64,000 nucleotides of DNA from Patescibacteria group bacterium (lineage in GTDB: Bacteria; Patescibacteriota; Doudnabacteria; UBA920). Position numbers and translations under genes: made by a program. The stretch spans positions 188,885 through 252,884 of the forward strand of contig DAIMCS010000001.1 in the NCBI GenBank assembly GCA_036726225.1. The letters run 5' to 3'. The notes under the pieces are model-generated. The model was not told where the DNA came from, did not search any database, and saw nothing but the letters and a program-made list of their open reading frames with translations. Below are positions 2,112 to 48,589 of this stretch, one piece after another (the first letter of the stretch is position 1; the number at the start of each line of letters is the position of its first letter).

Positions 2112-4391
2112 TTACGATTCGTCTTCCTGTATTCCATATTCCGCCTTCTCGTCGGGCGGCACCACACCATACACCTCCCTGGGTTTTGCGCCTTCACCCG
2201 GGCCAATTACCCCTTTGGCTTCCAAAATATCCAGCAGCCTTGCCGCGCGGGCGTAACCCACCCGCAAGCGCCTTTGAAGCAACGAAGCCGAAGCCTTGCC
2301 CGCGCGCTTAACTTCTTCCATAGCTTCTTGCAGGAGCGGATCGTCATCGCCGTCACCGCTGTCCCCTTCTAACCCCGGGATTCCCAGGGCCCGCTTTGGT
2401 TTTTCTAAAATTTCTTCGTTGTAAATGACTGCGCCGGTCTGCTGCTTAAAGAAATCCACAACTTTTTTAACTTCCTTTTCACCAATGTAAGCGCCCTGGA
2501 CTCTTTTGGGTTTGTTAAATTCTGCCGAGGTGTAAAGCATATCGCCGTTGCCCAAAAGTTTTTCAGCTCCCGAGGAGTCTAAAATTGTGCGGCTGTCTAT
2601 TTGGCTGGCGACGGCAAATGCAATTCTGGAAGTGATGTTGGCTTTAATAAGTCCGGTAATAATATCTACAGACGGCCTTTGGGTGGCCAGCACTAAATGG
2701 ATGCCCACAGCGCGCGCCATTTGGGCCAAACGCACAATTGCGGCTTCCACTTCTGCCTGGGCCACGGACATAAGGTCTGCAAGTTCGTCTACCAAAATTA
2801 CAATGTAAGGCATAGACAAACCGGATGCTTCGTTGTACTCCACAATATTCCTTTTACCGACTTCGGACAAAAGCTTATAGCGGCGGTCCATTTCCGCCAC
2901 TGCCCATTTGAGCGCATTAACTGCTTTTTCATTTTCCGTTACCACAGGCGTAAGCAAATGCGGAATGCCGTTATACGGTGTCATTTCCACGCGCTTTGGG
3001 TCAATAACAATAAACTTAACGTCCTGCGGCGTGTTCCTGTAAAGCAAGCCAATGAACAAGCTGTTAATAGCCACGCTTTTGCCCGTGCCGGTGGCGCCGG
3101 CAATAAGCATATGCGGCATTCTGGCCAAATCTACTATAATTGGATGTCCGGCCACGTCCCTGCCCAAAGCCAAAGCCAGTTTGCTTTTGTAATCCACAAA
3201 TTCAGCTGTTTGCATAACCTCGCGTAAGCGCACAATAGCCGTAGATTTGTTAGGCACTTCTATGCCGACTAAGGCTTTACCCGGAATTGGCAGCTCCATA
3301 CGGATGCTGTGAGCGGCAAGGGCAAGCGCAAGGTCGTTTTGCAAAGCCGCAATTTGCGAAAGCTTAACTCCCACTGCCGGGCGCAAAGTGTACTGGGTAA
3401 CTGTTGGTCCCACGTTAACTTCCCCCATTTCCACCTCTATCCCAAAATCCGCCAAAGTCTTTTTTATAACCGCGACATTCACTTCTATGTTGCCGCTGTC
3501 CACGGCGGTTTGGTTGTCGTCGAGCAAATCAAACTGCGGCAGCTTCCAGTCTTTGCGGTCTTGCACTGTCATGGCATCTAACTGCGGAGACTTAATGGTT
3601 TTTGTCTGTATGGTTTGCGAACTGGTTTTACTTTCCGCTTCATTAGCAACTTTTGGATTTTTCTCTAACACCTTTTCTTCCAAAAACCCGCTTTGGCCCA
3701 TAGCGTTAATTTTCAAAACCGGCTGCTCCAAATTATGGACAACCGGCGCCTCTGCTTCTTTCGGCTTTTCTTGTCCGTCTTCTTTCTTCTCCCAGAGTGA
3801 CTTAAGCGACACGTCAAAAATAATTAACAGGCTAATTACAATGAGCGCCACTAAAATTAAGCTGCCCGCCCAAAAACCCAAAAACGAAAACAGCGGACTG
3901 GAAACTGCGGCGCCTAAATAGCCGCCACCCCGGCCTTCTGATGCAATTTCAAAAGCGCTTAAGCCCGAATTTAAATAAAAAATATGAATAAGTCCGCCCA
4001 GGCCGACGCAAAGCAAAACCGCGCCCAAATAAATCCTTAAATAAAAACTGTGGTGCTTGCTCTCTTCATTTAAATCCTGTTTGTACAACGACACAGCAAC
4101 GCTTAACAAAATTAAAGGCACTAAGTAGGCCATTAGCCCGGACGCCCAGGAGAGGCCTTGGAAAAATTGCCGGCCGAGTGAGCCCGCCAGCCCTGCCAAA
4201 CTTAAAAGTGAAACTAAAGCCAAAGCAGTAAACACCACCACCATTATGCCGCGTTTGGTTTCAGGGGAGAGGTCGAGTTTGGGCTTGTTCCTTTTCTTCT
4301 CAGCTTTTTCCAGCTTTTCTAATTTTTCCAATTTTTGCAGCTTTTTTTTGTATCTGTCCATGAATAATTTCCTTATAGTTTCCCTCCCCAA
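2112..4391 (-). CDS. ftsK: DNA translocase FtsK/SpoIIIE
   Basis: 759 aa; N-terminal TM helices, Walker A GATGTGKSV, C-terminal winged-helix gamma domain (LLQEAMEEV...RLRVGYARAARLLD). Confidence 0.9.
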   Translation of the reverse strand: MGRETIRKLFMDRYKKKLQKLEKLEKLEKAEKKRNKPKLDLSPETKRGIMVVVFTALALVSLLSLAGLAGSLGRQFFQGLSWASGLMAYLVPLILLSVAVSLYKQDLNEESKHHSFYLRIYLGAVLLCVGLGGLIHIFYLNSGLSAFEIASEGRGGGYLGAAVSSPLFSFLGFWAGSLILVALIVISLLIIFDVSLKSLWEKKEDGQEKPKEAEAPVVHNLEQPVLKINAMGQSGFLEEKVLEKNPKVANEAESKTSSQTIQTKTIKSPQLDAMTVQDRKDWKLPQFDLLDDNQTAVDSGNIEVNVAVIKKTLADFGIEVEMGEVNVGPTVTQYTLRPAVGVKLSQIAALQNDLALALAAHSIRMELPIPGKALVGIEVPNKSTAIVRLREVMQTAEFVDYKSKLALALGRDVAGHPIIVDLARMPHMLIAGATGTGKSVAINSLFIGLLYRNTPQDVKFIVIDPKRVEMTPYNGIPHLLTPVVTENEKAVNALKWAVAEMDRRYKLLSEVGKRNIVEYNEASGLSMPYIVILVDELADLMSVAQAEVEAAIVRLAQMARAVGIHLVLATQRPSVDIITGLIKANITSRIAFAVASQIDSRTILDSSGAEKLLGNGDMLYTSAEFNKPKRVQGAYIGEKEVKKVVDFFKQQTGAVIYNEEILEKPKRALGIPGLEGDSGDGDDDPLLQEAMEEVKRAGKASASLLQRRLRVGYARAARLLDILEAKGVIGPGEGAKPREVYGVVPPDEKAEYGIQEDES

Positions 4392-4535
4392 GTTTGGGGA
4401 GGGCCGGGGAGGGGTTGATTGATCCCTCTAATTCTCGCTGCCTTATTTTAACATTTTTTTATCCAAACTAAAACCCCGCTTTTTGGCGGGGTTTTTGTAT
4501 CTGCGTAATCTGTCAGTTATCTGTGTATCTGTGGT

Positions 4536-5309: not shown

Positions 5310-6389
5310 TTAAAGATAGTTTTTAACGGCCCCAAAAACTACCTCTCCTCTATCTGTAATCGCGCTGATGTATTGATTGTTTTGCAGTTGCTTTCTAAAC
5401 TCGCCGCTTTCCAACTCCGTTTTTACTTCGTTGAACAAATTTTTTCCGCCCAGCAGAATTAATTTGCGCTCTACCAGGTAGTCCACGTTGTCTTCCTCCT
5501 GCCCGGGCAGGGTAAAAGTTATTAAAAGAGGCAGTCTCCACTGCAAAGATTCGGCAGTACTAAGCCCGCCCGGTTTGCCCACAAAAATGTCAGCAATTGA
5601 GTAAAGCTCGGCCATGGGAGAGTAGAAAGAAAGCGGGATTACGTTTTTATAGCCTAAGCTATGTATAGAATTAAAAAGCTGCTTATTTTTTCCACAGGCA
5701 AAAATTATTTTGGTATTGGGTAAATTTACCAATTTTTCTAAATCTTCCAGCTTAAAACCAATGCCCAAAGACCCTGTGCCTATTAGCACCACTTTTTCAT
5801 TTTGCGATATGCCCAATTTTTGCCTGACTAATGACGGATCAATTTCTAATTTTGGTTTAAGCGCCATGCCGCAAACAAAAATTTTGTCCGCTGGAAAACC
5901 GCGAGCCACTAATGCCTGTTTTTGCTCTTCAATATTGGCCAAATAAAAATCGGCTTGCTCGTAAAGCCAAAACGGATGCAAGTGGTAATCGCTAAAGCCT
6001 ATGCCAAAAGGTTTGGTGTAAAGTTTTTTACGTTTAAGATAAGCAATAACGCCGGAGGCGGCTGTTTGCACGCTAATTACCATATCGGGCTTAAAGTTGT
6101 TAATAAGATTTAACGCCTGCTTATGGTTAAAACTTGCAATAAAGAGCCTAAAGGGCATACCGGCCAAGTAACCCCATCTATATATCCAGCCCCACACAAA
6201 GGGTAAATGCTTGTTTATAAATTGGTGTATGACAAAAGTTGTGTGGGAAAATTTTCCTTCCTCAACTTTGCCAATATCTTCTAAGCGGACCTCAAAGCCG
6301 GCCCGGGCGAGATGCCAGCCAATATTCTCGGCCATGGTTTTGTGGCCCAGACCAACCGAAGTATGGAAAATTAAGATTTTTTTAGACAT
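5310..6389 (-). CDS. Glycosyltransferase, MGDG synthase/UgtP-like (GT28 family)
   Basis: 359 aa; N-terminal GxGH motif (HTSVGLGHKT), MurG/UgtP-like two-domain architecture. Confidence 0.55.
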   Translation of the reverse strand: MSKKILIFHTSVGLGHKTMAENIGWHLARAGFEVRLEDIGKVEEGKFSHTTFVIHQFINKHLPFVWGWIYRWGYLAGMPFRLFIASFNHKQALNLINNFKPDMVISVQTAASGVIAYLKRKKLYTKPFGIGFSDYHLHPFWLYEQADFYLANIEEQKQALVARGFPADKIFVCGMALKPKLEIDPSLVRQKLGISQNEKVVLIGTGSLGIGFKLEDLEKLVNLPNTKIIFACGKNKQLFNSIHSLGYKNVIPLSFYSPMAELYSIADIFVGKPGGLSTAESLQWRLPLLITFTLPGQEEDNVDYLVERKLILLGGKNLFNEVKTELESGEFRKQLQNNQYISAITDRGEVVFGAVKNYL

Positions 6390-7791
6390 CCCTAAAGTTT
6401 ACTGCTTTATTAAACTCCTTATTTGTAAGTAACTTTTTTCCCACAACCACATCGCGCAAAGTTTTTCCCGATGACACCGCTTCTTTTACCACCTGCTTCA
6501 TAGTCTCGTAACCGAATTTTGGCGTGAGTAGGGTTGCGTAGGCAGTGGATTTTTCCAAAAGTTCACGGCAGCGTTTTGGGTTGGCTTTGATGGTTTTGAT
6601 GCAGCGATCGGTAAAAATCTGTAAAACCTGCGAAGCCATTTTTATTGAATGGATGAGTTTGTCAGCCACAGGCGGAACCATAACAGCTAAATTTAACTGC
6701 GCGCCGTGAGCTGCGTGCTCTATAGTTAAATTATTTCCAGAAACTGTGTAATACAAAACATTTACTGTTTCAGGTAAAATTGGGTTTACTTTACCCGGCA
6801 TTATGGAAGAACCGTTTTGAAGTTCGGCTAAAGTAATTTCGCCAAATCCCCCTCGCGGGCCGCTCGACATAAGTCTCAAATCGGATGCGATCTTCGAGCA
6901 ATCCAAACATAGAGCAGTAATGGCTTGCGAAATTTGTAAAAAATCAGAGGAGCTGGAAGTGTGGGCAACAAAATTTTTAGCCGGTATAAAATTTTGTTTG
7001 GTAATTTTATTTAACTCTTTATACACACTCTTTATGTATCTAGGGCTCGCATTAACAGAATTACCCACCGCAGTTCCGCCTAGATGCAAGGTTAATGCGA
7101 GAGATTTTACCCGGGTGATTTCTTTTTGGTGACCACGGATAATTTCTGCGTAAGCGAAAAATTCTTCTCCCAAAGTAATTGGCACTGCGTCCTGCAAATG
7201 AGTTCGGGCTAATTTTAAAATATTTTTAAACTGTTTACCTTTGCTTTCCAGTGCAGCTGATAAATTTTCTAAAACTGATGATAATTGGTCAAGCAAATTT
7301 GCGGACGCAACCTTAATCGCAGTAGGGTTTACATCGTTTGTAGATTGGCTTCGGTTAACGTGGTCGTTAGCATTTACTACTTCACTCCCTCTCCCCTTGC
7401 GGGAGAGGGTTGGGGTGAGGGGTTTATTTAATATCTCATTCGCCCGACTCGCTATCACTTCATTGACGTTCATGTGAATGGACGTGCCGGCTCCACCCAT
7501 AAGTGAAGGCAAGGGAAATTGATAATCAAAAAATTTCCTTTTTACCCTCTCCCTTTGGGAGAGGGTGGCCGAAGGCCGGGTGAGGGTTCCATGCTCTATT
7601 ATTTCATCCGCCGCCTTTACAATTGCATTCTTTACGTTGCGGTTAAAATTTCCCGCGGTAAAATTTGCAATCGCTGCCGCTTTTTTTATTTGCGCCAGCG
7701 CAATAATAAATTCCCTATGAAACGGGCTCGTATCAAAGGGAAAATTTTTTAATGCTTTTTGTGTTTGCTCGCCAAAATACTTTTTTTGCAT
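6382..7791 (-). CDS. Aspartate ammonia-lyase / class II fumarase family lyase, carrying two in-frame palindromic-element insertions
   Basis: 469 aa; signature GSSIMPGKVNP; insertions at 7385-7422 and 7545-7587 encode low-complexity PTLSRKGRGSE-type segments. Confidence 0.7.
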   Translation of the reverse strand: MQKKYFGEQTQKALKNFPFDTSPFHREFIIALAQIKKAAAIANFTAGNFNRNVKNAIVKAADEIIEHGTLTRPSATLSQRERVKRKFFDYQFPLPSLMGGAGTSIHMNVNEVIASRANEILNKPLTPTLSRKGRGSEVVNANDHVNRSQSTNDVNPTAIKVASANLLDQLSSVLENLSAALESKGKQFKNILKLARTHLQDAVPITLGEEFFAYAEIIRGHQKEITRVKSLALTLHLGGTAVGNSVNASPRYIKSVYKELNKITKQNFIPAKNFVAHTSSSSDFLQISQAITALCLDCSKIASDLRLMSSGPRGGFGEITLAELQNGSSIMPGKVNPILPETVNVLYYTVSGNNLTIEHAAHGAQLNLAVMVPPVADKLIHSIKMASQVLQIFTDRCIKTIKANPKRCRELLEKSTAYATLLTPKFGYETMKQVVKEAVSSGKTLRDVVVGKKLLTNKEFNKAVNFRDV

Positions 7792-7793
7792 AG

Positions 7794-8390
7794 CTATTTC
7801 AACTTAAGCAAAGCTTGTCCGCCTGCCTGCCAATTTTTTATGGCATCCACGGGATGGATTAGCATAATAATATTCAGCGTTAGGTTATCCCTCACCCACC
7901 AGAGCAAAAGCAATTCAATGCCAACTATAGCCAAAACACTTTGCCAGACTTTGGCCCGCCACGCCACCCAAAAACCAATAGCCATCATTACAATGTCGCT
8001 TAAGGAATTTAAAACACTATCACCCACATAGCCGTAATTCACGGTCATATTGCGGTAACGGTCTATTATAAAAGGCGAGTTTTCCAAAATTTCCCACGCG
8101 CCTTCTAAAACAATTGCGGCAATTAGGCGATGCTTTGGCGACAGCTTTCTTGCCACCAGCCAAAGAAAAAAATAAAACAAAAAACCGTGGATTACATGGG
8201 TTAAAGAATAAGCGTCAAAAACTCGCTGGGAATTTTCGCTTCCGTAAATATTCCCGTCCCACCAGCCAAACCTGCCGTCAGGACCAAAGCCCGACCTGCC
8301 CATAAAAAATTCTGCCGCCGCTACAATTACAAAAACCAGTACGCAAGAAAGAATTATCCATTTGTGCTGCTTGATAAATTGCATATGCAT
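7794..8390 (-). CDS. Membrane protein, DUF2585-like
   Basis: 198 aa, multiple TM helices; family assignment from memory only. Confidence 0.4.
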   Translation of the reverse strand: MHMQFIKQHKWIILSCVLVFVIVAAAEFFMGRSGFGPDGRFGWWDGNIYGSENSQRVFDAYSLTHVIHGFLFYFFLWLVARKLSPKHRLIAAIVLEGAWEILENSPFIIDRYRNMTVNYGYVGDSVLNSLSDIVMMAIGFWVAWRAKVWQSVLAIVGIELLLLWWVRDNLTLNIIMLIHPVDAIKNWQAGGQALLKLK

Positions 8391-10509: not shown

Positions 10510-11205
10510 AACTGATAAATTTTGGCAAAAACTTAAACGGTGAATAGCGGAAAGGCCGTTTTGCAAAATGAGTTTTCGATGCTGCTGTGTAGCATAACCT
10601 TTGTGCTGTTTGAGATTGTAGATTGGATAAGTTTCATGCAACTTTTGCATTAAACTATCTCTATAAACTTTTGCGATAATTGATGCAGAGGCGATTGAAA
10701 GAATTTTATTGTCACCGTCTACAACTGCTTCTTGTTCAATTGTTAAGCCGGGAATTTTAAACTTGCCGTCAACAACTACCATGACTTTGTCATTCCCGCG
10801 AAAGCGGGAATCTTTTTTAAGATCCCCGATCGGGTCGGGGATGACATAAAAAGATAGCAGATTCTCAACGGCTTTTCTCATTGCAAGCAAGCTTGCGTTG
10901 TGAATATTTATTCTGTCAATCTCTTCAGGTGAAACTTCCGCAATGCTCCAGGCAATTGCATTCTCTTTTATAATTGGCGCTAATTCTTCTCTTTTTTCAG
11001 CCGAAAGCAGTTTGCTGTCCTTAATTCCACAAGACTTTATAACTTTATAACTTTCTACTTTTAACTTGTCGTTTGCATCCGATATAGGCAAAATCACCGC
11101 GGATGCGACGACAGGCCCGGCCAAACATCCCCTGCCGACTTCGTCACAGCCGATGATGTGGGAAAAACCTTGTGATATTTTTTTGTTTTCGTATTTGTTG
11201 TTCAT
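10507..11205 (-). CDS. rnhB: Ribonuclease HII with in-frame palindromic-element insertion
   Basis: 232 aa; GCDEVGRGCLAGPVV and HKGYATQQH motifs; 10789-10845 palindromic element encodes ...DPIGDLKKDSRFRGND... Confidence 0.85.
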   Translation of the reverse strand: MNNKYENKKISQGFSHIIGCDEVGRGCLAGPVVASAVILPISDANDKLKVESYKVIKSCGIKDSKLLSAEKREELAPIIKENAIAWSIAEVSPEEIDRINIHNASLLAMRKAVENLLSFYVIPDPIGDLKKDSRFRGNDKVMVVVDGKFKIPGLTIEQEAVVDGDNKILSIASASIIAKVYRDSLMQKLHETYPIYNLKQHKGYATQQHRKLILQNGLSAIHRLSFCQNLSV

Positions 11206-11402
11206 GTTTTTAGCTTCCCTCCCCCTTGCCTGCCTACCGCAGGCAGGTGGGGAGGGCTAGGGAGGGGGTAAGATCGACAATAATTTTCACCCTCCCCTAA
11301 CCCCTCCCATCAAGGGAGGGGAATCAGAATATTTTGTTCAATGTAAAACGACCTATGCTAACATACCGGTTCCACGAAGTAAAGTGGAAAACTCGAGAAA
11401 CA

Positions 11403-21471: not shown

Positions 21472-22983
21472 TTATATACTATGTATCATTTCTATTTTTG
21501 CGCCCAAAGATTTTAACCTGGCGACTAAATTTTCATAGCCGCGGTTTATAGAATAAACATTGCGGAGCACAGATGTGCCGCGGGCGGCGAGCATGGCAAT
21601 TAAAATAATCGCAGCCGGACGCAAAGCCGGCGGACAAATAACTTCCGCGCCCCTAAGTTCTGTTGGCCCTTCCACATACACGCGGTGCGCATCTGCCAAA
21701 ATAATGTTAGCGCGAAGTTTATTTAATTCCATATAGTAAATTGCGCGGTTTTCGTAAACCCAATCGTGAATAAGTGTGGTGCCTTTGGCCTGCGTGGCCA
21801 CGGGCACAAAGAAGGGGAGATTGTCTATATTTATTCCGGCGGCAGAAGTAAGCGGGTGAATTTTTTCTTCCAAAGCAGAAAGTTTGGAAGAATAGGTTTT
21901 AATATCCACCAAATTAGTTACGCCGTTGTGACTTTTGTATTTTTTTATAATTGAATATTTAAAACCCATCTTTTCTAATTTTAAAAGTTCCAATTCAAGA
22001 AAATCTATTGGGCAGCGCTCAATAATAATGGAAGAATTGGTAGTTGCGGCCAAAGACAAAAACAACATAGCCTCAATTGGATCTTCACTCAAATAAAAAA
22101 CCGCGCGTTTATTAATTTGGGGTTTGCCGTAAATTTTTAAGGTGGATGTGCCAATACCTTCAATTTTCACGCCTAAAACCTGCAGAAAATGGCACAAATC
22201 TTGCACCATATAATTTGCGGATGCCAATTTTATTGTAGTGGCGCCGGAAGTTTTGGCTGCTGCCATAAGCGTATTTTCCGTTACTGTGTCACCCATTTCA
22301 TACAAAACAATTTCTGCCGGTTTCAATTTGGGGGAGCTTACTTGGTAATGGTCGTGGAAAGTTTTAATTTTTACGCCCAATTTTTCTAAAGCAAATAAAT
22401 GAGGCCTGACAGTTCGCTCGCCCAACTTGCAGCCGCCGGCCAAAGGTAAGCGAAAATTGCTCAAAATATGAGCAAGCGGCCCTAAGAGCATAAGCACGCT
22501 TCGGGTTTTAACCGCAGCTTCTTTATCTATATTGTTTAAATTAATTTTCCTACCCGGCACTACCTCCACGTCGCTGCCTTGCCACTTTACGTTTACGCCA
22601 ATGCTGCTTAAAACCTCAATGACTCTATGAACTTCCTCTATTTTAGGCACATTTTTTAAAACCGTTTTACCTTCATTTAGCAAAGTGGCGCAGAGTAAGG
22701 CCACAGCCGCATTCTTTGAGGTGTTTATTGAAACTTTACCGGAAAGTTTATGCCCGCCCTCAATTTTAAAGTTAACCGACTTGTCGGCCAGAGTAATAAT
22801 TTCCTGGTTTAACACCGAACTTATTTTAGCCAGCATTTCCGTGGTTAAGTTCTGCTGGCCTTTTTCCATTCTGGCTACGGCCGACTGGCTGGTCTTTAAG
22901 GCTTTGGCAAAACCGCTTTGGGTAAAACCCTTTTGTTCCCTGACTTCTGCAATAAACTGTCCGATTTTTTGCTGGTCTTTCAT
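21472..22983 (-). CDS. murA: HTH(XRE)-fused UDP-N-acetylglucosamine 1-carboxyvinyltransferase MurA
   Basis: 503 aa; N-terminal approx. 60-aa XRE HTH then full MurA (KLSGKVSINTSKNAAVALLCATLL...). Confidence 0.85.
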   Translation of the reverse strand: MKDQQKIGQFIAEVREQKGFTQSGFAKALKTSQSAVARMEKGQQNLTTEMLAKISSVLNQEIITLADKSVNFKIEGGHKLSGKVSINTSKNAAVALLCATLLNEGKTVLKNVPKIEEVHRVIEVLSSIGVNVKWQGSDVEVVPGRKINLNNIDKEAAVKTRSVLMLLGPLAHILSNFRLPLAGGCKLGERTVRPHLFALEKLGVKIKTFHDHYQVSSPKLKPAEIVLYEMGDTVTENTLMAAAKTSGATTIKLASANYMVQDLCHFLQVLGVKIEGIGTSTLKIYGKPQINKRAVFYLSEDPIEAMLFLSLAATTNSSIIIERCPIDFLELELLKLEKMGFKYSIIKKYKSHNGVTNLVDIKTYSSKLSALEEKIHPLTSAAGINIDNLPFFVPVATQAKGTTLIHDWVYENRAIYYMELNKLRANIILADAHRVYVEGPTELRGAEVICPPALRPAAIILIAMLAARGTSVLRNVYSINRGYENLVARLKSLGAKIEMIHSI

Positions 22984-24110: not shown

Positions 24111-24119
24111 AAATAAATA

Positions 24120-24200
24120 TACAAATTAACAAATGTACAAATGAAACCAATAACAACAAATTGGTGACTATCAGTTTCATTTGTACATCAGTATATTTGT
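24120..24200. repeat. Inverted-repeat element ACAAATGTACAAATGAAAC...GTTTCATTTGTACAT (copy 1 of 2)
   Basis: Second copy at 48590-48690 with same arms and ATAACAACAAAT core. Confidence 0.6.
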
Positions 24201-24351
24201 ATCATAATTACCATTTGAAAGCAACTGCCTTCGGGTGCTACAATGGTTTAGCTACACGCCGCCGTTAAATTATTTTTTCATCCAAAAAGATGCATAATTT
24301 TGGGGCAATTATACTTTTTATAGTAAAATTAAGACCAATTAATTTAATAAG

Positions 24352-26319: not shown

Positions 26320-26551
26320 CTACTCAAAACAATTTTCAAGCAGGCTCACACGCCTGCTTTTTGCTTGATTTTATTAGGGTTTTCTGGTAAGGTAAATAAG
26401 TTAAATAGCTTTCAACCTAATTTATTCTCTCCAATGCCTGGAGAGATGTCTCAAACTTCAGTTTGAGACAGAGAGGTTAGTCCCAAGGTTAACCTCTCCC
26501 CCGACCCCTCTCCAGGAATTGGAGAGGGGAAATCAATAAGGAAAAACTAAC

Positions 26552-28484: not shown

Positions 28485-28511
28485 AAACCTCTCCATCTGG
28501 AGAGGTTTTTT
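28485..28511 (+). terminator. Rho-independent terminator after infB
   Basis: aaaacctctccatctggagaggtttttt. Confidence 0.8.
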
Positions 28512-28711
28512 AATCACCCTTGATAAAAACTAAAAATTTGGCTATACTGGTTAGCTGTTATAATTAAAAAGTAATTCATTACTTTTTATCCCCGCGGAGG
28601 CGGGGATCCAAATAATAGATTCCGGATAAATTTTCTAACCTCATTTTTAACCTCTCTGTCCCTTCGGGACATCTCTCCATGAATTGGAGAGAATAATAAA
28701 GATTAAAATCT

Positions 28712-29140
28712 ATGAAACCTGTAAAAAAAGACACCAATAGAATTGCCAAGGTTAACTCCCTTATCCAGCATGAATTAGGGCCGATTTTGCTTGAATTTTT
28801 AGGGGAATTTAATGCCTTAGTTACTATTACAAAAGTTGATACTTCCAAAGATATGAAATGGGCAAAAATATGGATTTCTATTGTACCTACAGGCCTGCAG
28901 CCTGAGCCACAAATTGAAAAGCCCTCGGGAAAAAAAGAAAAAGAATTTTCCGTTTTGGACAAAAAAATCCTGGATTTTTTAGCCAAAAATATTTACGACA
29001 TCCAGGGCGAAGTTAACAAACATTTCCACACCAAAATAATTCCGCGGATTAGTTTTCATTTAGACGTCTCACCGCGCTACGCTCAGCATATAGATGAATT
29101 GATTAAAACAATTCATGAAGAACCAAACACCAAATTATAA
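28712..29140 (+). CDS. rbfA: Ribosome-binding factor A
   Basis: 142 aa; RIAKVNSLIQHELGPILL...VTITKVDTSKDMKWAKIWISI; infB-rbfA synteny. Confidence 0.7.
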   Translation: MKPVKKDTNRIAKVNSLIQHELGPILLEFLGEFNALVTITKVDTSKDMKWAKIWISIVPTGLQPEPQIEKPSGKKEKEFSVLDKKILDFLAKNIYDIQGEVNKHFHTKIIPRISFHLDVSPRYAQHIDELIKTIHEEPNTKL

Positions 29141-32918: not shown

Positions 32919-33008
32919 CGCCTGCCTGCGGTAGGCAGGGAAAATTTACATTGTTATTAAATTTATCCGGAATCTATTTAATTGGATTCCCGCCTTCGCG
33001 GGAATGAC
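32919..33008. repeat. Composite palindromic element (GTCATTCC...GGGAATGAC family) in pyrC-pyrD spacer
   Basis: gtcattccgcctgcctgcggtaggcagg...aaatttatccggaatcta...ggattcccgccttcgcgggaatgac. Confidence 0.7.
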
Positions 33009-33014
33009 AAAAGA

Positions 33015-34099: not shown

Positions 34100-34165
34100 T
34101 TATCCATTCCCGCGAAAGCGGGAATCTATTAACTGGATTCCCGCCTACGCGGGGATGGAATGGCT
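34100..34165. repeat. Composite palindromic element in pyrD-pyrF spacer
   Basis: ccattcccgcgaaagcgggaat...ggattcccgcctacgcggggatgg. Confidence 0.7.
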
Positions 34166-35599: not shown

Positions 35600-35681
35600 T
35601 CCGGAAAATTTTTGTTGACATAAAATTTATCCGGAATCTATTTTCTGGATCCCGGATCAAGTCCGGGATGACACAAATTGA
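35585..35681. repeat. Composite palindromic element in pyrE-prs spacer
   Basis: gtcattccggaaaa...taaaatttatccggaatcta...ggatcccggatcaagtccgggatgac. Confidence 0.7.
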
Positions 35682-37123: not shown

Positions 37124-37280
37124 TATAGTATCCAGGCAAGTTATTCTCGGTCTGGCTTCAGTTACAATTTAAACTTGAGCAATGCTACAAAATAGCAGGT
37201 TTAAATTGAGAGGAACATTTTACGGAGCAGCTGAAATTTTGATGCAGTCAAAATTTAACGCGCGGAGAAAAGTGCGACGA

Positions 37281-37357
37281 GGACGATTAGCTCAGTTGGT
37301 TAGAGCGCCTCGTTTACACCGAGGAGGCCAAAGGTTCGAATCCTTTATCGTCCACCA
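37281..37357 (+). tRNA. tRNA-Val(TAC)
   Basis: GGACGATTAGCTCAGTTGGTTAGAGCG CCTCG TTTACAC CGAGG ... GGTTCGAATCC ... ATCGTCCACCA. Confidence 0.85.
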
Positions 37358-37504
37358 TGAACCATTCGCTCCGCTCAGGTTCATGGCACGCCATAAGCGT
37401 GACATGGAAAATAGAGCGAGTGTTCATGCCCTGACACCCGAACGAAGCGAGTGGTTCAGGGCACGGGTCAACCACCTCTCATTACGTTCAAGGTGCTGCC
37501 CCTT

Positions 37505-37685
37505 ATCCCAAAAATGCCTCCGGCATTTTCGGGAACCCTCAATGAAATCCAAACCGCAAAAACGAGTAGCGCAGCTCCGACGTTTCAGTCGGAGCGAGCA
37601 CGCGTTTTTGTGGAAGAGGAGTTCGTGATGGAGAGCGAGAATCCCGATATTAATCGGGATGAAAGCTCGGAAACACGAACGACTA
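37505..37685 (+). ncRNA. Structured tRNA-leader element (copy B) upstream of tRNA-Phe
   Basis: cccaaaaat hairpin, internal caaaaacg-hairpin-cgtttttg module, GGAGAGCGAGAATCCCGAT-ATTA-ATCGGGATGAAAGCTCGGA core, outer stem gttcgtg/cacgaac. Confidence 0.55.
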
Positions 37686-37760
37686 GCCTCGGTAGCTCAT
37701 TGGTAGAGCGCTGCCCTGAAGAGGCAGGCGTAGTCAGTTCGATTCTGACCCGAGGCACCA
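37686..37760 (+). tRNA. tRNA-Phe(GAA)
   Basis: GCCTCGGTAGCTCATTGGTAGAGCG CTGCC CTGAAGA GGCAG ... GTTCGATTC ... CCGAGGCACCA. Confidence 0.85.
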
Positions 37761-37837
37761 TCGGCCCATTTATCCTTACGGCTTACGTGTGCAAAAAAAT
37801 ATTTTGCCCACTTCAGCCTTCAGGATAATGTGCCTCT

Positions 37838-38016
37838 TTCCCAAAAATGCTAATAGCATTTTTGGGAACCCTCAATGAAATCCAAACCGCAAAAACGAGT
37901 AGCGCAGCTCCGACGTTTCAGTCGGAGCGAGCACGCGTTTTTGTGGAAGAGGAACAACTGCGGAGGGCGAGAGTCCCGATTGAAGATCGGGACGAAAGCC
38001 CGGAGCAAGTTGTGAC
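37838..38016 (+). ncRNA. Structured tRNA-leader element (copy C) upstream of tRNA-Gly; shares an identical approx. 85-nt segment with copy B
   Basis: ...GGAGGGCGAGAGTCCCGAT-TGAAG-ATCGGGACGAAAGCCCGGA core, outer stem acaact/agttgt. Confidence 0.55.
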
Positions 38017-38090
38017 GCGGCTATGGTTCAATGGTAGAACTTCTCCTTGCCATGGAGAGGATAGGGGTTCGATTCCCCTTAGCCGCTCCA
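38017..38090 (+). tRNA. tRNA-Gly(GCC)
   Basis: GCGGCTATGGTTCAATGGTAGAAC TCTCC TTGCCAT GGAGA ... GGTTCGATTCCCC TTAGCCGCTCCA. Confidence 0.85.
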
Positions 38091-38282
38091 AAAGAAAACG
38101 CCTCACCCCTTGTGGGTGGGGCGGTTTCTTTTTTAAGAAGGCACGAGGGGAATCGAACGGGTTGAAGTGAGGCCAGACCGCTTCAGCAGAAGCGGTAGCA
38201 GCCGAGCGATCGGGAATGCGAGCTGGCGCAGCATTCCCGCAACCCCGGGCTACGAGCGAGCCTGCAGGCGAGCGAGGACGAA

Positions 38283-38301
38283 ATTCCCCTTAGCCGCTCC
38301 A
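38283..38301 (+). other. 19-nt direct repeat of tRNA-Gly 3' end (att-like scar or tRNA fragment)
   Basis: attccccttagccgctcca identical to 38072-38090; preceded by a leader-like remnant (cgagcgatcgggaatgcgagc) and followed by a terminator hairpin. Confidence 0.6.
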
Positions 38302-38507
38302 AAGAAAAAACTATCACTTTATGTGGTAGTTTTTTCTTTGGTTAGGATAAGCTTGGGACCTTTTCCCTCGAGCGCAGCGAGACCCCGACCTTCTCGTCGG
38401 GGTTAGCCGATCCTTAAAACCCAAAAAGCAAAGTCGAAGGACCCACAAAAAGAGTTTGACTAAGGATGATTTTTTATATAAATTTAGCCAAAAGGAGGAG
38501 TTTACAA

Positions 38508-38798
38508 ATGCTCATAATTTTCTTTTTGGCGTTTTTAATAGGTGCGGTTTTAGGGGTTGCCCTTGGGTATTTTTTGAACTTAGCTTTGGTAATCGTAGTT
38601 GGCGCGCTTTCGCTTGCAATTTTTATCCAAAGCTTAAGAGGCAAAAGCGGTTCTGAAGGCAGCTGGGTTTACGGCGTAATTGGCTGCGGGGCGCTCGGTT
38701 TATGTTTTTCCATGGTTACAACCGCGGCTGTGGTTAGGCGTCAAGCTGTCACAAGCGTCATAAGCAGCGCCGGCGAATCTACGAAAGGGTTCTTGTAG
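38508..38798 (+). CDS. Hypothetical membrane protein
   Basis: Strong RBS AAAGGAGGAG before ATG 38508; 96 aa, three TM helices. Confidence 0.45.
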   Translation: MLIIFFLAFLIGAVLGVALGYFLNLALVIVVGALSLAIFIQSLRGKSGSEGSWVYGVIGCGALGLCFSMVTTAAVVRRQAVTSVISSAGESTKGFL

Positions 38799-38924
38799 AA
38801 ATATGTGCTTAGGTAAAGCTTTGCAAAATTGGCGGAAGCAATTCCGCCATTTTTTACTAATATTGGCTTTTTAAAAGATTTGCGGTAAAATATAGGTAAT
38901 TCAAATTTTAAGAAACAAAAATAT

Positions 38925-39806
38925 ATGGTAAACCAACAATTAATAGACTACATTAAACACGAACAACAACAGGGCAAAAGCCGCGAAGATATTGTTTCGG
39001 CTTTGCATAGTCAGGGCTGGCAGCAAGCAGACATTGACCAGGGCTTTGCCTCGGCAGCGTCAGGAGCCCCCGCCACACCCATGCCCATGGGTCAGGCGCT
39101 TCCCAAGGCCAAGCAAATATTTAGTGATTCCTGGAGAATTTACAAAAGCCATTTTAAAACCTTAATCATACTAAGCGCCATACCCACCATCTCTTTTGCA
39201 ATCGTTGGCTTGATGTTTGCCGGCGGAGCCGTAGCAGGGACAGCGCTCAAGCTTAACATTCAGGCTTTGGGAATATTAGGTTTGCTAGTTGCCCTGGTTG
39301 CAATAATTTTTTTAATTTACCTTAGCATTTGGTCAGCTGTCGCTCTTCTATTTGCTGTTAAAGACCCGGCCGAAAGCCTTTCCTGGATAGAAGCTTACAA
39401 AAGATCGAAACCCAAAGTAAACGAGTTCTTTTCCACTAATTTACTTTCAGGCCTGGCGACCATTGGAGGGTTCCTATTGTTAATAATTCCTGGAATTATT
39501 TTTGCCCTCTGGTTTAGCCAGTCTTCCTATGTTGTAGTTGAGGAAAATTTGCAAAATTCCGCGGCCTTAAAAAGAAGCAAGTACTATATAACAGGCAGGC
39601 TTGGCGAAGTATTCGGCAAGTTCTTCTTTATAGGCATAATTACTCTGGCGGTTTATATTGCTGTTGGCCTCATTATTTCACCGTTTGGGAGTAAGGAGGG
39701 CAATCCTGCAAGTTTTGTCACAAACATTATATCTATACTTTGGACTCCTCTGACCGTTGTTTACGGGTACCAATTATACAAACATCTAAAAGCAACCAGG
39801 CCCTAA
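38925..39806 (+). CDS. Hypothetical polytopic membrane protein
   Basis: 293 aa; soluble N-terminal approx. 60 aa then 5-6 TM helices. Confidence 0.45.
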   Translation: MVNQQLIDYIKHEQQQGKSREDIVSALHSQGWQQADIDQGFASAASGAPATPMPMGQALPKAKQIFSDSWRIYKSHFKTLIILSAIPTISFAIVGLMFAGGAVAGTALKLNIQALGILGLLVALVAIIFLIYLSIWSAVALLFAVKDPAESLSWIEAYKRSKPKVNEFFSTNLLSGLATIGGFLLLIIPGIIFALWFSQSSYVVVEENLQNSAALKRSKYYITGRLGEVFGKFFFIGIITLAVYIAVGLIISPFGSKEGNPASFVTNIISILWTPLTVVYGYQLYKHLKATRP

Positions 39807-40024
39807 AACTGCTTATTTAAGCACCTTAAAAACCCCTTAAAATAAGGGGTTTTTAAATTCCCCAAAACGGCCAAACCTTAGAATGAAATTATGTTTTTAC
39901 TCATATTTAAGCCAAAAAGCAGCAAAAAGGTCTTGAAAAAGGGCTAAAAAAAGAGTATACTTAGGTGTAAAAGTGCTAACAAGCGCTTTTTCAATTTCCT
40001 TAACAACTTAATGCCTTTTAGGGG

Positions 40025-40148
40025 CCCCCGAATTTTCACTCGAAAATTTGGGGAAAGGGACAACATTCCGAACGTTGTGAGTACGATTTTAATCGGGACG
40101 AACAGAGTGAGGAATCGTTGGCCCGCAGAAAGGAGTTTGATTCAAAAA
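40025..40148 (+). ncRNA. Leader-like structured element (variant F) upstream of a protein-coding gene
   Basis: ccccgaattttcactcgaaaatttgggg hairpin then gtgagtacgattttaatcgggacgaac...; no tRNA follows. Confidence 0.4.
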
Positions 40149-40835
40149 ATGAAAACTCTAATCAGCCTAAAGTCAGCCGTTTCTAAAAGCTTTAACTTAA
40201 ATGTTATTGCCTTGCTCTTGCTGATCCCGGTAATTTTTCCGGAATTAGCATTGGCTTCTGAACTTGCCACTTTAGGTTCACAGGGTCAAATTTTTGAAAT
40301 CAAAATTACTGGTTCAACGGTGTTGGATCAGTCTCCAAAACAAAACGACAACAATTCTTTAACAATGAAAGAGCTTGAGGACAACGACCCGTTGGTTGTT
40401 GCCTTAAGACAATATCTTGAAAAGTTAGGTTCACCTTTAAGCATTTACGCCGCAGATATAGTTAAGCAGCCGCAATGGCAAAGAGCTTTGGCTATTTCCT
40501 GGGTGGAAAGCAACATGGGTAAACACTGCTACGACAACAACTGTAGCGGTATTGGGGTAAAACCCGGCCACCCGGCTTGGAGAAAATATAAAACCAAGCT
40601 GGACTGGTTTATAGACATGTGTAAGCTAATGGAAAAACCTATCTATAAAGAAAAGTACACCACCTTCAAACAAATGAGGGGAGTGTACGTGGTCCCGGGA
40701 AGTGATGCGTGGGTAAACGGAGCTACACAAAAATATGGTCAGTTAGTTTCATTAACTGAACAAGCCTCGTTAGACAGACAGAAAAAGGCGCAATTAGTAG
40801 CAGCCTTAGTTACTTTTCCGGAAAATATAGACTAA
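40149..40835 (+). CDS. Secreted hypothetical protein
   Basis: Start trimmed to MKTLISLKSAVS... (signal peptide); track ORF 5' extension overlaps element F; terminator 40842-40870. Confidence 0.5.
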   Translation: MKTLISLKSAVSKSFNLNVIALLLLIPVIFPELALASELATLGSQGQIFEIKITGSTVLDQSPKQNDNNSLTMKELEDNDPLVVALRQYLEKLGSPLSIYAADIVKQPQWQRALAISWVESNMGKHCYDNNCSGIGVKPGHPAWRKYKTKLDWFIDMCKLMEKPIYKEKYTTFKQMRGVYVVPGSDAWVNGATQKYGQLVSLTEQASLDRQKKAQLVAALVTFPENID

Positions 40836-40884
40836 ATTTTAAAACCCCCTCTGCAAAGAGGGGGTTTTGATTTGCATTAATAGG

Positions 40885-41053
40885 GCTCCCAAAAATGCAA
40901 TGCATTTTTGGGAAAGAGGGGCAGCATCCCAAACGAAGTGAGTCCCGACTTGTCGAGACGAACACAGTGCGGGATGAATGACCCGTGGAGGGGTTTTAGT
41001 TTGGCTATTGAATTAATAGTGCTTTTTGATTAAAATGTATTAGTTATACAAAT
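40885..41053 (+). ncRNA. Structured tRNA-leader element (variant D) upstream of tRNA-Cys
   Basis: gggctcccaaaaatgcaatgcatttttgggaaagagg...gaagtgagtcccgac...cgggatgaatgacccgtgg. Confidence 0.45.
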
Positions 41054-41130
41054 GGCGCAGTGGTGAAGTAGTCTAACACTGCGGTCTGCAAAACCGCTAT
41101 TCGTGGGTGCAAATCCCACCTGCGCCTCCA
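41054..41130 (+). tRNA. tRNA-Cys(GCA)
   Basis: GGCGCAG...GCGGT CTGCAAA ACCGC...GTGGGTGCAAATCCCAC CTGCGCCTCCA. Confidence 0.8.
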
Positions 41131-41204
41131 CGGGTCAATCGTCCTTCACTCATTCATTTTTGACTGAAGTCAAAAAATTCATTATGTTCAGGACGTTGCC
41201 CCTT

Positions 41205-41396
41205 CATCCCAAAAACGCGTGCTCTCCCGACAAAAGTCGGGATGCGCTCCACGTTTTTGGGAGGTCTATATAACAAATCCTCAGCTCAAAAAAGGGCTCT
41301 CAAAAATGCAATGCATTTTTGGGAAAGAGGAGTTCGTGACGCAGAGCGTAAATTCCGACGTTAGTCGGAATGCAAGCTCACAGGCACGAACGACGA
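41205..41396 (+). ncRNA. Structured tRNA-leader element (copy E, two cccaaaaa/tttttggg modules) upstream of tRNA-Leu(TAA)
   Basis: ...GCAGAGCGTAAATTCCGAC-GTTA-GTCGGAATGCAAGCTCACAGG core with compensatory changes in the hairpin relative to copies A-C; outer stem gttcgtg/cacgaac. Confidence 0.55.
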
Positions 41397-41483
41397 GCCT
41401 GGGTGGTGGAACTGGCATACACTACAGACTTAAGATCTGTCGCCCGCAAGGGATTGAGGGTTCGACTCCCTCCCCAGGCACCA
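41397..41483 (+). tRNA. tRNA-Leu(TAA)
   Basis: GCCTGGGTGGTGGAACTGG...ACAGA CTTAAGA TCTGT...long variable arm...GGTTCGACTCC...CCCAGGCACCA. Confidence 0.85.
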
Positions 41484-41498
41484 AATAATATACAACTA

Positions 41499-41846
41499 AT
41501 GAATCCTGTTGTTGAACTACTCCAAAAACTTCCGGTCTGGCTGCTGCTAATTTTGAGCGCCTCCTCGGTCATTGCTGGAGATTTTTTTGCAAAATATTGG
41601 TCAATCCATTTGCGTAGTGTCTTTTATTTCCTCGCAATTGCCAGCTATATGCTGTCCGGATTTTTTTATATTCCTACCCTGCTGCGGGAAGGATTAATTG
41701 TAACTTCGGTCATATGGAGCGTTTTGAGCATTGTGGGGTTCCTAGTAATTGGCCTGCTTATTTTTAAAGAAACTTTATCAACTGTGGAAATAGTTGGCGT
41801 TTTATTTGGCGTGATCTCGCTAGTCATTTTAAGTATAAGTAAATAA
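41499..41846 (+). CDS. Small DMT/SMR-like 4-TM membrane protein
   Basis: Start trimmed to MNPVVELLQ (track ORF begins inside tRNA-Leu); 115 aa, four TM helices. Confidence 0.5.
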   Translation: MNPVVELLQKLPVWLLLILSASSVIAGDFFAKYWSIHLRSVFYFLAIASYMLSGFFYIPTLLREGLIVTSVIWSVLSIVGFLVIGLLIFKETLSTVEIVGVLFGVISLVILSISK

Positions 41847-41867
41847 ATGTCCTAAAGCTTTACAAAA

Positions 41868-42035
41868 ACCATTTGACAAGCTAAAAGCTTTGTCGTAAAT
41901 TATGTGTACTATTAATTTTTGAAGGAGTTGGATAGAAAAAAAGACCCACACGACATCTACAACCAAAAACAAGCAAGTCAACTCAATGGCTCAGTTTGGC
42001 GTAAACAAATTCTTTAAGGGTTTGTTTTTTTATTT
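41868..42035 (+). promoter_or_regulatory. Conserved cis-element copy 1: promoter (TTGACA-17-TAAATT), conserved leader, intrinsic terminator upstream of GNAT gene
   Basis: TTGACA 41873-78, TAAATT 41896-901, aaggagTTG 41922-30, terminator aaacaaattctttaagggtttgtttttttat about 42003-42031; paralog at 42666-42832. Confidence 0.6.
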
Positions 42036-42154
42036 GCCACACAGGCTGGCCAAAAGCATTGACAAAAATTCAAAAAATCTATAAAATAAGCGGTTAGACT
42101 TTTTTCTTCCGCCAATGTTCATCAATTTTTGGTGACTGGTGGCGGAGGGAAAAA

Positions 42155-42574
42155 GTGAAGAACTTCAAAATCAGAGAAGCTACAAAAAAGGATCGGCCGG
42201 CTATTTTGGCACTCATCAGGATGATGGGGCCAAAAAAACTATTTCAGACAAATTTGCCGACCTACAAGTCCTTCTTCGTGGCTGTTGTTGGAGGAAAGGT
42301 AGTGGGCTGCGGCGCCTTGCAGATCTATTCTAAAAGGATTTGCGAAATTAGGAGCTTTGCAGTCCACCCGGATTATCAAGGGAATGGGATCGGGCCAGCG
42401 CTGGGAAAAGCTTGCATGTTCAGAGCTAAAGAGAGAGGAATCATCGAACTCTTCACCATTGCCAACAAGAAAGCTAAAGCAATGTTCCAAAAATTAGGAC
42501 TCAGAACCCTGTTCAACGAAAAATACGCAATGCTTGTCGTTTTTGGCAAAAGCCCCGAAACACTCCCGAAGTGA
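42155..42574 (+). CDS. GNAT family N-acetyltransferase
   Basis: 139 aa, GTG start after GGAGGGA RBS; acetyl-CoA motif QGNGIGPALGKA. Confidence 0.75.
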   Translation: MKNFKIREATKKDRPAILALIRMMGPKKLFQTNLPTYKSFFVAVVGGKVVGCGALQIYSKRICEIRSFAVHPDYQGNGIGPALGKACMFRAKERGIIELFTIANKKAKAMFQKLGLRTLFNEKYAMLVVFGKSPETLPK

Positions 42575-42665
42575 CCACCAAGGAAAAGAGTGTTTGGACA
42601 TCCACAAACACTCTTTCCTCCCATCCTGCTAAAAAACCTTCTCTGCTAATAAAATTTAAGGAAAA

Positions 42666-42832
42666 AATATTTGACAAACAATTAGCTTTACTGTAAATTA
42701 TGTTTAATATTAATTTTTTAAGGAGTTGGAAAGAATAGAACACTCGTCCCTTTTTAACCAAAACCGACAAAGTCAAGTCAATGGCTTAGTTCAACGTTAA
42801 CAAATTCCTAATGAGTTTGTTTTTTTATTATA
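42666..42832 (+). promoter_or_regulatory. Conserved cis-element copy 2 immediately upstream of hss (terminator ends about 25 nt before hss start codon)
   Basis: TTGACA 42671-76, TAAATT 42694-99, aaggagTTG 42720-28, short ORF 42726-42800, terminator aacaaattcctaatgagtttgtttttttat. Confidence 0.6.
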
Positions 42833-42853
42833 AAAATTTTAAATCAACAAAAT

Positions 42854-48584: not shown

Positions 48585-48589
48585 ACCAT

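Follow-up and report, generated by a model that had tools for sequence, protein, structure and literature searches.

How two GC-rich palindromes came to lie in-frame inside an enzyme gene whose catalytic motifs are intact is the question raised by a stretch of 64,000 nucleotides, here called the window, from a Patescibacteria group bacterium (GenBank assembly GCA_036726225.1, contig DAIMCS010000001.1, positions 188,885 to 252,884 of the forward strand). The gene encodes an aspartate ammonia-lyase (aspartase, AspA), and the two palindromes within it, insert 1 and insert 2, belong to a known repeat, variously named BoxC, the PIT element or the intrastrand triplex motif TMECO. The repeat itself is not new; what is new is its setting, a Patescibacteria host with copies inside housekeeping genes. 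The inserts are most probably copies of the BoxC/PIT/TMECO class that entered the aspartase gene secondarily and survived there as in-frame, stop-free and loop-placed segments that are read through with the enzyme intact. The gene and its inserts are as follows.

6382 to 7791, minus strand: aspartate ammonia-lyase (aspA-like) gene, 469 amino acids, carrying both inserts; assigned from the open reading frame (ORF), Pfam and the match to PDB structures.
7387 to 7422, minus strand: insert 2, a BoxC/TMECO-type triplex-motif copy encoding P124-G135 (PLTPTLSRKGRG); assigned from the pattern match and the gaps in homologues.
7537 to 7587, minus strand: insert 1, encoding T69-R85 (TLTRPSATLSQRERVKR); a triplex-motif copy at 7545-7587 plus 8 nt (TAAAAAGG).

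The 469-residue ORF contains the Pfam domains Lyase_1 (2.7e-72) and FumaraseC_C, and its top solved relatives are aspartate ammonia-lyases, with 1j3u as the best match (E=9e-98). Its nearest database homologues come from metagenome bins of Patescibacteria, the Candidate Phyla Radiation (CPR), and the G+C content of the window is 42%. When the aspartase was aligned with homologues, the catalytic motifs GGAGTS, SQSTND and THLQDA as well as the SS loop GSSIMPGKVNP were invariant. The first-pass annotation of this DNA had proposed two palindromes in-frame in an aspartase/fumarase-family gene that retains its full length and the GSSIMPGKVNP signature. Both statements were confirmed: the palindromes lie at 7387-7422 and 7545-7587 inside the minus-strand ORF 6382-7791, and the protein has 469 residues with all catalytic motifs intact. 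The identical protein together with identical element DNA was present on 18 contigs from several independent assemblies, and because the same protein and DNA thus recur in several samples, an assembly artefact is excluded.

On the plus strand, insert 2 reads CCCTCTCCC-CTTGC-GGGAGAGGG-TTG-GGGTGAGGG (7387-7422), which corresponds to CCCCTCACCCC-AA-CCCTCTCCC-GCAAG-GGGAGAGGG on the sense strand. Insert 1 reads (A)CCCTCTCCC-TTT-GGGAGAGGG(T), followed by GGCCGAAGGCC and GGGTGAGGG, at 7544-7587 of the plus strand; its core (7545-7587) can be written as CCCTCTCCC-TTT-GGGAGAGGG-TGGCCGAAGGCC-GGGTGAGGG, and its second loop holds a 12-nt mini-hairpin, GGCCTTCGGCC. Both inserts are in-frame, in one orientation and in one reading frame, with the order C-rich arm, C-rich arm, loop and G-rich arm on the coding strand. 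The palindrome of insert 1 accounts for the peptide TLTRPSATLSQRERV within residues 69-85. The tetranucleotide GGAA is present on each side of insert 1 and may represent a target duplication. The pattern CCTCTCC-N3-12-GGAGAGG matched four times in the window and the full three-part pattern once, against 0.00 expected in both cases (from shuffled sequences for the former), and 24 GC-rich perfect hairpins were counted compared with 2-6 in shuffles. The computed folding energy of the RNA hairpin is -21.7 kcal/mol for insert 2 (z=-3.7) and -25.9 kcal/mol for insert 1.

The published BoxC/PIT/TMECO pattern, 5'-CCCTCNCCC-N3-6-GGGNGAGGG-N3-GGGNGAGGG (Holder et al., 2015, PMC4666352), tolerates one mismatch, and the copies described here consist of a 9-bp hairpin and a third copy of one arm, 2-12 nt away. 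In the pattern search a second loop of 2-3 nt was permitted. Insert 2, with the 3-nt loop TTG, matches the published pattern exactly at 7387-7421 (0.00 expected). Insert 1 fails the strict pattern: its three arms are perfect, but the second loop has 12 nt (TGGCCGAAGGCC) instead of 3, and it is therefore a structural variant of the family and not a strict pattern match. The peptide of this variant (LIRPSATF) was seen again in the homologue P0112, at the position that carries insert 2 in the window protein (site 2; the position of insert 1 is site 1), and this recurrence marks the variant as a subfamily and not as an accidental form. In blastn, the 43-nt element matched 5374 of 5426 complete Escherichia coli genomes at a median of 16 places per genome. 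The best identity in E. coli was 97.3% over query positions 3-39 (37 nt), and the copy between nrdA and nrdB (CCCCTCACCCTAACCCTCTCCCGCAAGGGGAGAGGGG) differs from insert 2 at one of 36 positions, figures that represent the best of tens of thousands of copies, so that identity in the loops should not be over-read. The same query hit 558 records of plasmids or chromids, among them Azospirillum replicons with 20-30 places each and others from Klebsiella, Sinorhizobium and Rhizobium.

In the proteobacterial literature, 3610 copies were catalogued across 262 genomes, and the 23 triplex-motif copies of E. coli MG1655 were described as "always located intergenically" (PMC4666352). Copies in E. coli also come in inverted pairs, the abundance of the motif differs between E. 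coli and Salmonella, and loci holding the motif show more local rearrangement (PMC4666352). As single-stranded DNA the motif forms a stable purine-motif triplex in vitro; the double-stranded motif and the motif in vivo gave no triplex signal or footprint, and in E. coli neither promoter nor terminator activity was detected, nor any effect on RNA polymerase (PMC4666352, which also cites the earlier work of the Maher laboratory on the triplex motif, considered here as cited there). To judge from their sequence, the in-gene copies could adopt a hairpin, an intrastrand triplex or a G-quadruplex (G4) as single strands, and the G-rich strand fits the canonical quadruplex motif G3N3G3N2G4N3G4. Rfam at gathering thresholds returned tRNAs only, its E-value mode over 7300-7700 gave only sub-threshold chance matches, and a reading for intrinsic terminators and promoters found no terminator-like site in 7200-7800.

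In order to distinguish insertions from inherited segments, an alignment of the closest homologues (120 proteins including the window protein) was inspected at both sites. The site-1 segment comprises 11 residues in 106 proteins and 30 residues in the window protein alone, and none of the 119 nearest homologues has insert 1. The loop at site 2 typically has 16 residues, compared with 25 in the window protein, and most homologues are without insert 2. Solved aspartases show a gap of 18 residues at site 1 and of about 8 residues at site 2 relative to the window protein. At the DNA level, eight orthologues carry GGA AAA uninterrupted at site 1, where the window has 51 nt more. With insert 1 unique among the 120 proteins, a longer loop at site 2, gaps in the solved aspartases and a site-2 element in P0017 that its close relative P0031 lacks, the inserts are secondary, and the segments did not turn out to be conserved parts of this enzyme subfamily, the outcome against which the first-pass annotation had warned.

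Site 2 has been occupied more than once. Elements of BoxC type were found there in P0015/P0016, P0017, P0105, P0022, the P0071/P0072/P0112 clade and P0098, with peptides including LTPTLSQRERE, LTPNPSPARGEG, SPLPNPPHQGEG and LIRPSATFPQGGKG, and they fall into at least seven separate clades of a neighbour-joining tree. The same loop is occupied by other palindromes in P0003/P0004, P0060 and P0002. Site 2 is thus a recurrent insertion hot spot across CPR lineages. Empty sites consist of A-rich Lys/Gly loop codons, for example GGA AAA and AAA GGC AAA; GAAAA flanks the P0015 copy, and AA precedes nearly every copy read in the C-first orientation. The preceding AA and the A-rich empty sites suggest either a preference for A-tracts as targets or that AA is part of the element. 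Two observations suggest that existing hairpin loops draw further insertions: copies are nested at 11217-11269 of the window and in P0060 at site 2, and a series of different hairpins has occupied site 2.

Other additions were noticed among the AspA homologues. A third in-frame site, after YK.LNKI, is used on contigs L008 (P0004) and L013 (P0011) by a hairpin CCGCCTCGGCTCGAC..GTCGAGACGGG with the peptide IRLGSTVDLAESRRA, and yet another insert (GLSTSLK) is present at site 1 of P0005 and P0009. The homologue P0066 (509 aa) has an N-terminal GIY-YIG domain (PF01541) joined to the aspartase, which suggests that a homing-endonuclease-like gene was fused to, or mis-called with, aspA.

The distribution of the element in related genomes was followed on the contigs L009 and L010, which encode P0015 and P0016 and are syntenic with each other and with the window (proteins 72-85% identical). 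Each carries nine hairpins of triplex-motif type in about 20 kb, nearly all within genes, and orthologous in-frame sites were found in the genes for an alpha/beta hydrolase, a Mur ligase (three), alanine racemase (Alr), D-Ala-D-Ala ligase (Ddl; two) and AspA. The Mur ligase, Ddl and hydrolase genes of the window have no triplex-motif copies, and the relatives L001, L002, L013 and L014 have none at all. The abundance of the element therefore differs between lineages. Three relatives with 54-60% identity, from a contig scan of the GTDB species set, have the loci without the element. Outside the CPR lineage, in-frame copies were found in a DinG-like helicase gene on the low-GC metagenome contig L018 and in the inter-domain linker of a dihydrolipoamide acetyltransferase (E2) on the Sphingomonas parapaucimobilis plasmid NZ_CP155755.1 (L017), in both of which the G-rich strand is the sense strand. 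A further in-frame copy lies in a polyprenyl synthase gene on the low-GC metagenome contig L063. A pattern scan of metagenomes returned mostly high-GC contigs, on which long ORFs are unreliable, and most motifs lay outside long ORFs; the low-GC contigs contributed nine motifs, two of them in-frame in recognisable genes, which are too few for statistics. A limited literature search gave no account of this repeat family in CPR bacteria or inside coding sequence, and a limited search for palindromes inside CPR/Patescibacteria coding DNA gave nothing relevant.

The element is free of stop codons in five of its six reading frames, with a TGA in one frame of the G-rich strand only, so any insertion that preserves the frame is translatable. 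Every in-gene copy examined kept the frame and contained no stop codon. All of the approximately 12 independent in-gene copies in the CPR lineages studied are read with the C-rich strand as sense; a random choice of orientation among the stop-free frames would give this with a probability of about 0.6^12, or about 0.002. One attractive, still conjectural explanation for this bias is that quadruplex or triplex structures are not tolerated in the mRNA or the non-template strand, and the two G-rich-sense copies in the Sphingomonas E2 linker and the DinG-like helicase indicate that the orientation rule is not absolute. A replication-strand basis for the bias was considered with the GC-skew profile of the window, which follows gene orientation and shows no clear origin.

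The five orthologous elements of L009 and L010 were compared in order to determine which of their parts are conserved. The hairpin arms differ at 3/86 positions (3.5%), the third arm at 4/43 (9.3%), the loops at 12/36 (33%) and the flanking coding DNA at 185/892 (20.7%); the difference between arms and flanks is significant (Fisher p=2e-5). Two of the three arm changes form a compensatory T:A to C:G pair in aspA, and the third, in alr, affects one side only and gives a C·A mismatch. Because the arms have changed far less than the flanks, some process actively maintains the stems; selection on structure and gene conversion among the many copies would both do so, and these data do not separate the two.

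The effect of the inserts on the protein was assessed with an AlphaFold2 model of the window AspA, which has a mean predicted local distance difference test score (pLDDT) of 83.8 and a predicted template modelling score of 0.85 (pTM). The model superposes on Bacillus aspartase, with a template modelling (TM) score of 0.85 to 3r6v/1j3u. Its only long stretch with pLDDT below 50 comprises residues 125-134, exactly insert 2, between helices 105-122 and 141-146. The expectation that the inserts map to loops thus held clearly for insert 2 and weakly for insert 1, for which confidence in the model is moderate and the segment is partly helical. From the sequence, the inserts are most probably translated as extra residues, and the model suggests that the aspartase fold is kept with them and that the enzyme tolerates their presence.

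Six triplex-motif copies were found in the 64-kb window. The four that lie outside genes are listed here.

4382 to 4425, minus strand: intergenic member, reading CCCTCCCC-AAGTTT-GGGGAGGG-CC-GGGGAGGGG on the plus strand.
11217 to 11269, minus strand: intergenic member whose hairpin loop encloses another palindrome, of the CCTGCC..GGCAGG family.
11290 to 11322, plus strand: intergenic member, inverted relative to that at 11217-11269.
26487 to 26529, plus strand: intergenic member, CCTCTCCCCC-GA-CCCCTCTCC-AGGAAT-TGGAGAGGGG.

The first-pass annotation had placed other members of the family in four intergenic regions. Those near 4381 and 11210 were recovered as the copy at 4382-4425 and as the inverted pair at 11217-11269 and 11290-11322. 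Within 26395-26545, the segment 26487-26529 is a member and the remainder consists of other hairpins. The proposed member at 28630-28700 did not hold, since 28640-28700 is merely a diverged, AT-richer relative with TCTCTCC arms. A pattern match at 28488-28505 was rejected as a family member, as it is an ordinary hairpin between A6 and T6. Four of the six copies are intergenic in a window of which about 83% is ORF. Given this, and the position of most metagenome motifs outside long ORFs, the genic copies are regarded as survivors of a filter.

The inverted pair at 11217-11322 has its two copies 20 nt apart, and a CCTGCCTACCGCAGGCAGG palindrome of the other family is nested in one of the loops. 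The whole region of 131 nt folds at -71.9 kcal/mol (z=-6.6), and the CCTGCCTACCGCAGGCAGG family was also found at 16363, 32921 and 36636.

Taken in sequence, the events in the aspartase gene were most probably these. Copies of a dispersed, non-coding, GC-rich BoxC/PIT/TMECO repeat entered the gene at A-rich, lysine-coding loop DNA. A survivorship filter would then have retained insertions whose length preserves the reading frame, helped by the absence of stops in five of six frames, and whose placement is in tolerant loops of the N-terminal domain, distant from the catalytic motifs. In translation they would appear as 12-19 additional residues (PLTPTLSRKGRG and TLTRPSATLSQRERVKR) in an enzyme that remains intact, and the inserts would persist because they are in-frame, stop-free and in tolerant N-terminal-domain loops. 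As to the mode of spread, it appears likeliest that the element is selfish and mobilised in trans, or else that gene conversion copies it. We think that the stems are kept by selection at the level of structure or by homogenisation among copies.

Several observations weigh against this account of a tolerated, secondarily acquired repeat. A Pfam scan of 40 window ORFs, representing 64 kb of genome, found no transposase, integrase or REP-associated tyrosine transposase (RAYT; REP, repetitive extragenic palindrome), and the triplex motif was reported to have no association with mobile elements (PMC4666352). No clean pair of filled and empty sites was found. P0017 has the site-2 element and P0031, with a 95% identical protein and 88% identical DNA, is without it, but at their junction about 15 nt of the loop are replaced and not cleanly interrupted, and because of this replacement no unambiguous target-site duplication can be defined. 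The GGAA repeat around insert 1 could be due to chance. The strong conservation of the stems is unlike that of simple decaying junk DNA. Finally, insert 1 lies between helices 51-68 and 79-91 and is itself partly helical, with a block mean pLDDT of 72-84. A search for a phage vector gave five weak phage matches only.

The main rival holds that the element forms a nucleic-acid structure of benefit to the host, acting in pausing, in mRNA stabilisation or as a site for a structure-specific protein, and that its presence in genes is selected. This has a limited chance of being right. It would account for the slow change of the arms (3/86 versus 185/892 in the flanks, p=2e-5) with one compensatory pair and loops free to vary, for the retention of elements at orthologous sites in five genes across about 15-28% protein divergence, for the C-rich sense strand in all of the approximately 12 independent CPR in-gene copies and for the significant fold energies. 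However, arms can also be conserved by gene conversion, and the 'compensatory' CCCTCCCCC/GGGGGAGGG exchange is a common variant of the family; the presence of the elements is patchy, and close relatives without them encode a normal enzyme. G-rich-sense copies occur elsewhere, neither a terminator-like site nor an Rfam family was detected here, and in E. coli the motif is reported to act neither as promoter nor as terminator, to leave RNA polymerase unaffected and to give no triplex footprint in vivo (PMC4666352). A broader version, in which BoxC/TMECO is a cross-phylum mobile or self-propagating module extending from E. coli to Patescibacteria, which in CPR bacteria routinely colonises coding DNA, is kept there by selection on DNA or RNA structure and generates surface loops at hot spots, with the strand bias resulting from intolerance of G-quadruplex or triplex in mRNA, is speculative and we consider it doubtful.

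The remaining explanations are unlikely. If the peptides themselves were adaptive, the Pro/Ser/Thr-rich and then Gly/Arg-rich loops would endow AspA and other enzymes with a new surface property, for instance better solubility or an interaction site, and the recurrence of the frame LTP..TLS..R.R in insert 1, insert 2, P0015 and P0016 could be understood in this way. The same DNA is intergenic in the window and in E. coli, though, and other copies at the same loop use other frames (NPSPARGEG, SPLPNPPHQGEG). Conservation follows the arms of the DNA and not the peptide, as seen in the differing loops and in the amino acid changes caused by the aspA arm change, and the AlphaFold2 model shows a disordered loop; an adaptive peptide is therefore very improbable. 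Slightly less credible still is removal of the inserts before translation as small intron-like or processed segments, which would leave a protein of normal length. Stable hairpins could be recognised by an RNA-processing enzyme, and the rRNA genes of CPR bacteria carry unusual insertions, but every examined in-gene copy is in-frame and stop-free, which excision would not require, and no known intron or ribozyme family matches. It is equally hard to believe that the segments are ancestral to this aspartase subfamily and were lost by most relatives, their palindromic look being incidental. The whole immediate clade of the window protein (P0002, P0003 and P0004) does have extra sequence at site 2, but these additions are hairpins of different, unrelated kinds. 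No other protein among the 120 homologues has insert 1, the same 36-nt sequence occurs in non-coding DNA of the window and of E. coli, and at least seven scattered clades would have had to keep the segment while dozens of independent losses occurred elsewhere. The orthologue DNA, the alignment and the tree effectively refute an ancestral origin.

The copies described here share with BoxC/PIT/TMECO the three-part sequence, the dispersal in many copies, the inverted pairs, the variable loops and conserved arms, the lineage-dependent abundance and the lack of an associated transposase. They differ in host and position: known copies are described as intergenic and were catalogued in Proteobacteria, whereas the host here is a low-GC (42%) Patescibacteria genome, and two of the six window copies and most copies of L009 and L010 are in-frame inside genes, with the same AspA loop used repeatedly. 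Insert 1 also departs from the pattern in its second loop, a 12-nt mini-hairpin in place of 3 nt. The Rickettsia palindromic elements (RPE) are families of about 100-150 bp specific to Rickettsia with a conserved peptide (Ogata et al., 2000, as summarised in PMC10969869). They are likewise described as selfish-looking palindromes in-frame in unrelated housekeeping genes of a host with a reduced genome that tolerates the extra peptide; the elements in the window have 35-51 nt, are GC-rich, are of BoxC class and use several reading frames. Since size, sequence and peptide conservation differ from what is described there, they are not RPEs, though the behaviour is alike. REPs, which RAYT transposases mobilise, are imperfect GC-rich palindromes of 20-40 nt (Di Nocera et al., 2013, PMC3733652). 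Like the present elements, REPs and REPINs have many copies, often in inverted pairs and mostly extragenic, but REPs are without a third arm, and no GTAG/CGTC tag was found at any of the six window copies; the missing tag and the third arm exclude a REP/REPIN assignment. As regards miniature inverted-repeat transposable elements, the sole inverted repeat here is the hairpin itself and no insertion sequence was seen among the 40 window ORFs. The GC clusters of yeast mitochondria are likewise GC-rich palindromic modules in an AT-rich genome and can sit in-frame in the var1 gene, but they differ in sequence and host. Recurrent quadruplex/triplex repeats of methanogens, likewise dispersed in AT-rich genomes, offer the same choice of hairpin, triplex and G4 and can switch between these forms, but differ in sequence and host and are described from intergenic regions only (PMC8044849).

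BoxC/PIT/TMECO has been unexplained since the 1990s, being abundant, highly conserved and able to form a triplex in vitro, with no known function or means of spread. The aspartase locus and its relatives would provide a second clear case, beside Rickettsia, of selfish DNA within protein-coding genes, here genes of essential pathways. They open new routes of study, namely the comparison of filled and empty orthologous sites, the testing of sense-strand bias against G-quadruplex intolerance, and the use of patchiness in seeking a mobilising enzyme. Such inserts would also explain many of the 'PSP..GRG' stretches of low complexity and of the unusual length variants among predicted CPR proteins, and they are worth recognising in annotation and structure prediction.

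Palindromes of other types were found inside genes of the window as well.

10777 to 10852, minus strand: two hairpins (CATTCCCGCGAAAGCGGGAATC, GATCCCCGATCGGGTCGGGGATGACA) in-frame in the RNase HII gene, adding residues 118-143.
53893 to 53966, plus strand: rsmI gene, with both of these hairpin types again in-frame (NTIPAKAGIQMSMSGSPIRSGMENK), residues 46-78.
60909 to 60964, plus strand: gene for a membrane protein of Wzy_C (O-antigen-ligase-like) type, with these hairpin types in-frame close to its C-terminus (DPGSRILDSRFRGNDTIKL).

The structure 3o3g, RNase HII of Thermotoga maritima, has a gap opposite the RNase HII insert (between its chain residues 97 and 102), as has the RsmI structure 3kwp opposite the RsmI insert (between 61 and 66). 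The CATTCCCGCGAAAGCGGGAATC/GATCCCCGATCGGGTCGGGGATGACA palindromes are often paired, with intergenic copies at 28588-28623, 32965-33009, 34105-34160 and 35629-35679, and their in-gene peptides include DSRFRGNDK, IPAKAGIQ and SPIRSGMENK. Upstream of infB, the segment 26400-26486 contains three AT-richer hairpins, TCTCTCCA..TGGAGAGA, TGTCTCAAAC..GTTTGAGACA and GAGAGGTTA..TAACCTCTC. This composite of three hairpins occurs again, inverted, downstream of infB at 28640-28718 (inverted repeat I4, 79%), and the pair brackets the gene for IF-2. Two intergenic AT-rich palindromic arrays, at 24112-24209 and 48588-48685, lie 24 kb apart and are built of ATACAAAT..ACAAATG..CATTTGT units with arms that are 89% complementary; judging by their sequence they could be protein-binding sites.

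A tRNA cluster at 37182-41500 (tRNAs at 37281, 37686, 38017, 41054 and 41397) lies within repeated units of 115 nt at 37506/37839 (95% identical), 92 nt at 37602/41313 and 41 nt at 40879/41290, and the sequences flanking the tRNAs look like duplicated modules. A small GNAT acetyltransferase gene (42155-42574) lies between the two copies of a direct repeat of about 170 nt (41864-42040 and 42662-42834, about 80% identical, spacing 795-798 nt). Finally, the minus-strand ORF at 21472-22983, of the EPSP_synthase family (MurA-like), carries an N-terminal XRE-type HTH_3 domain, an unusual fusion.

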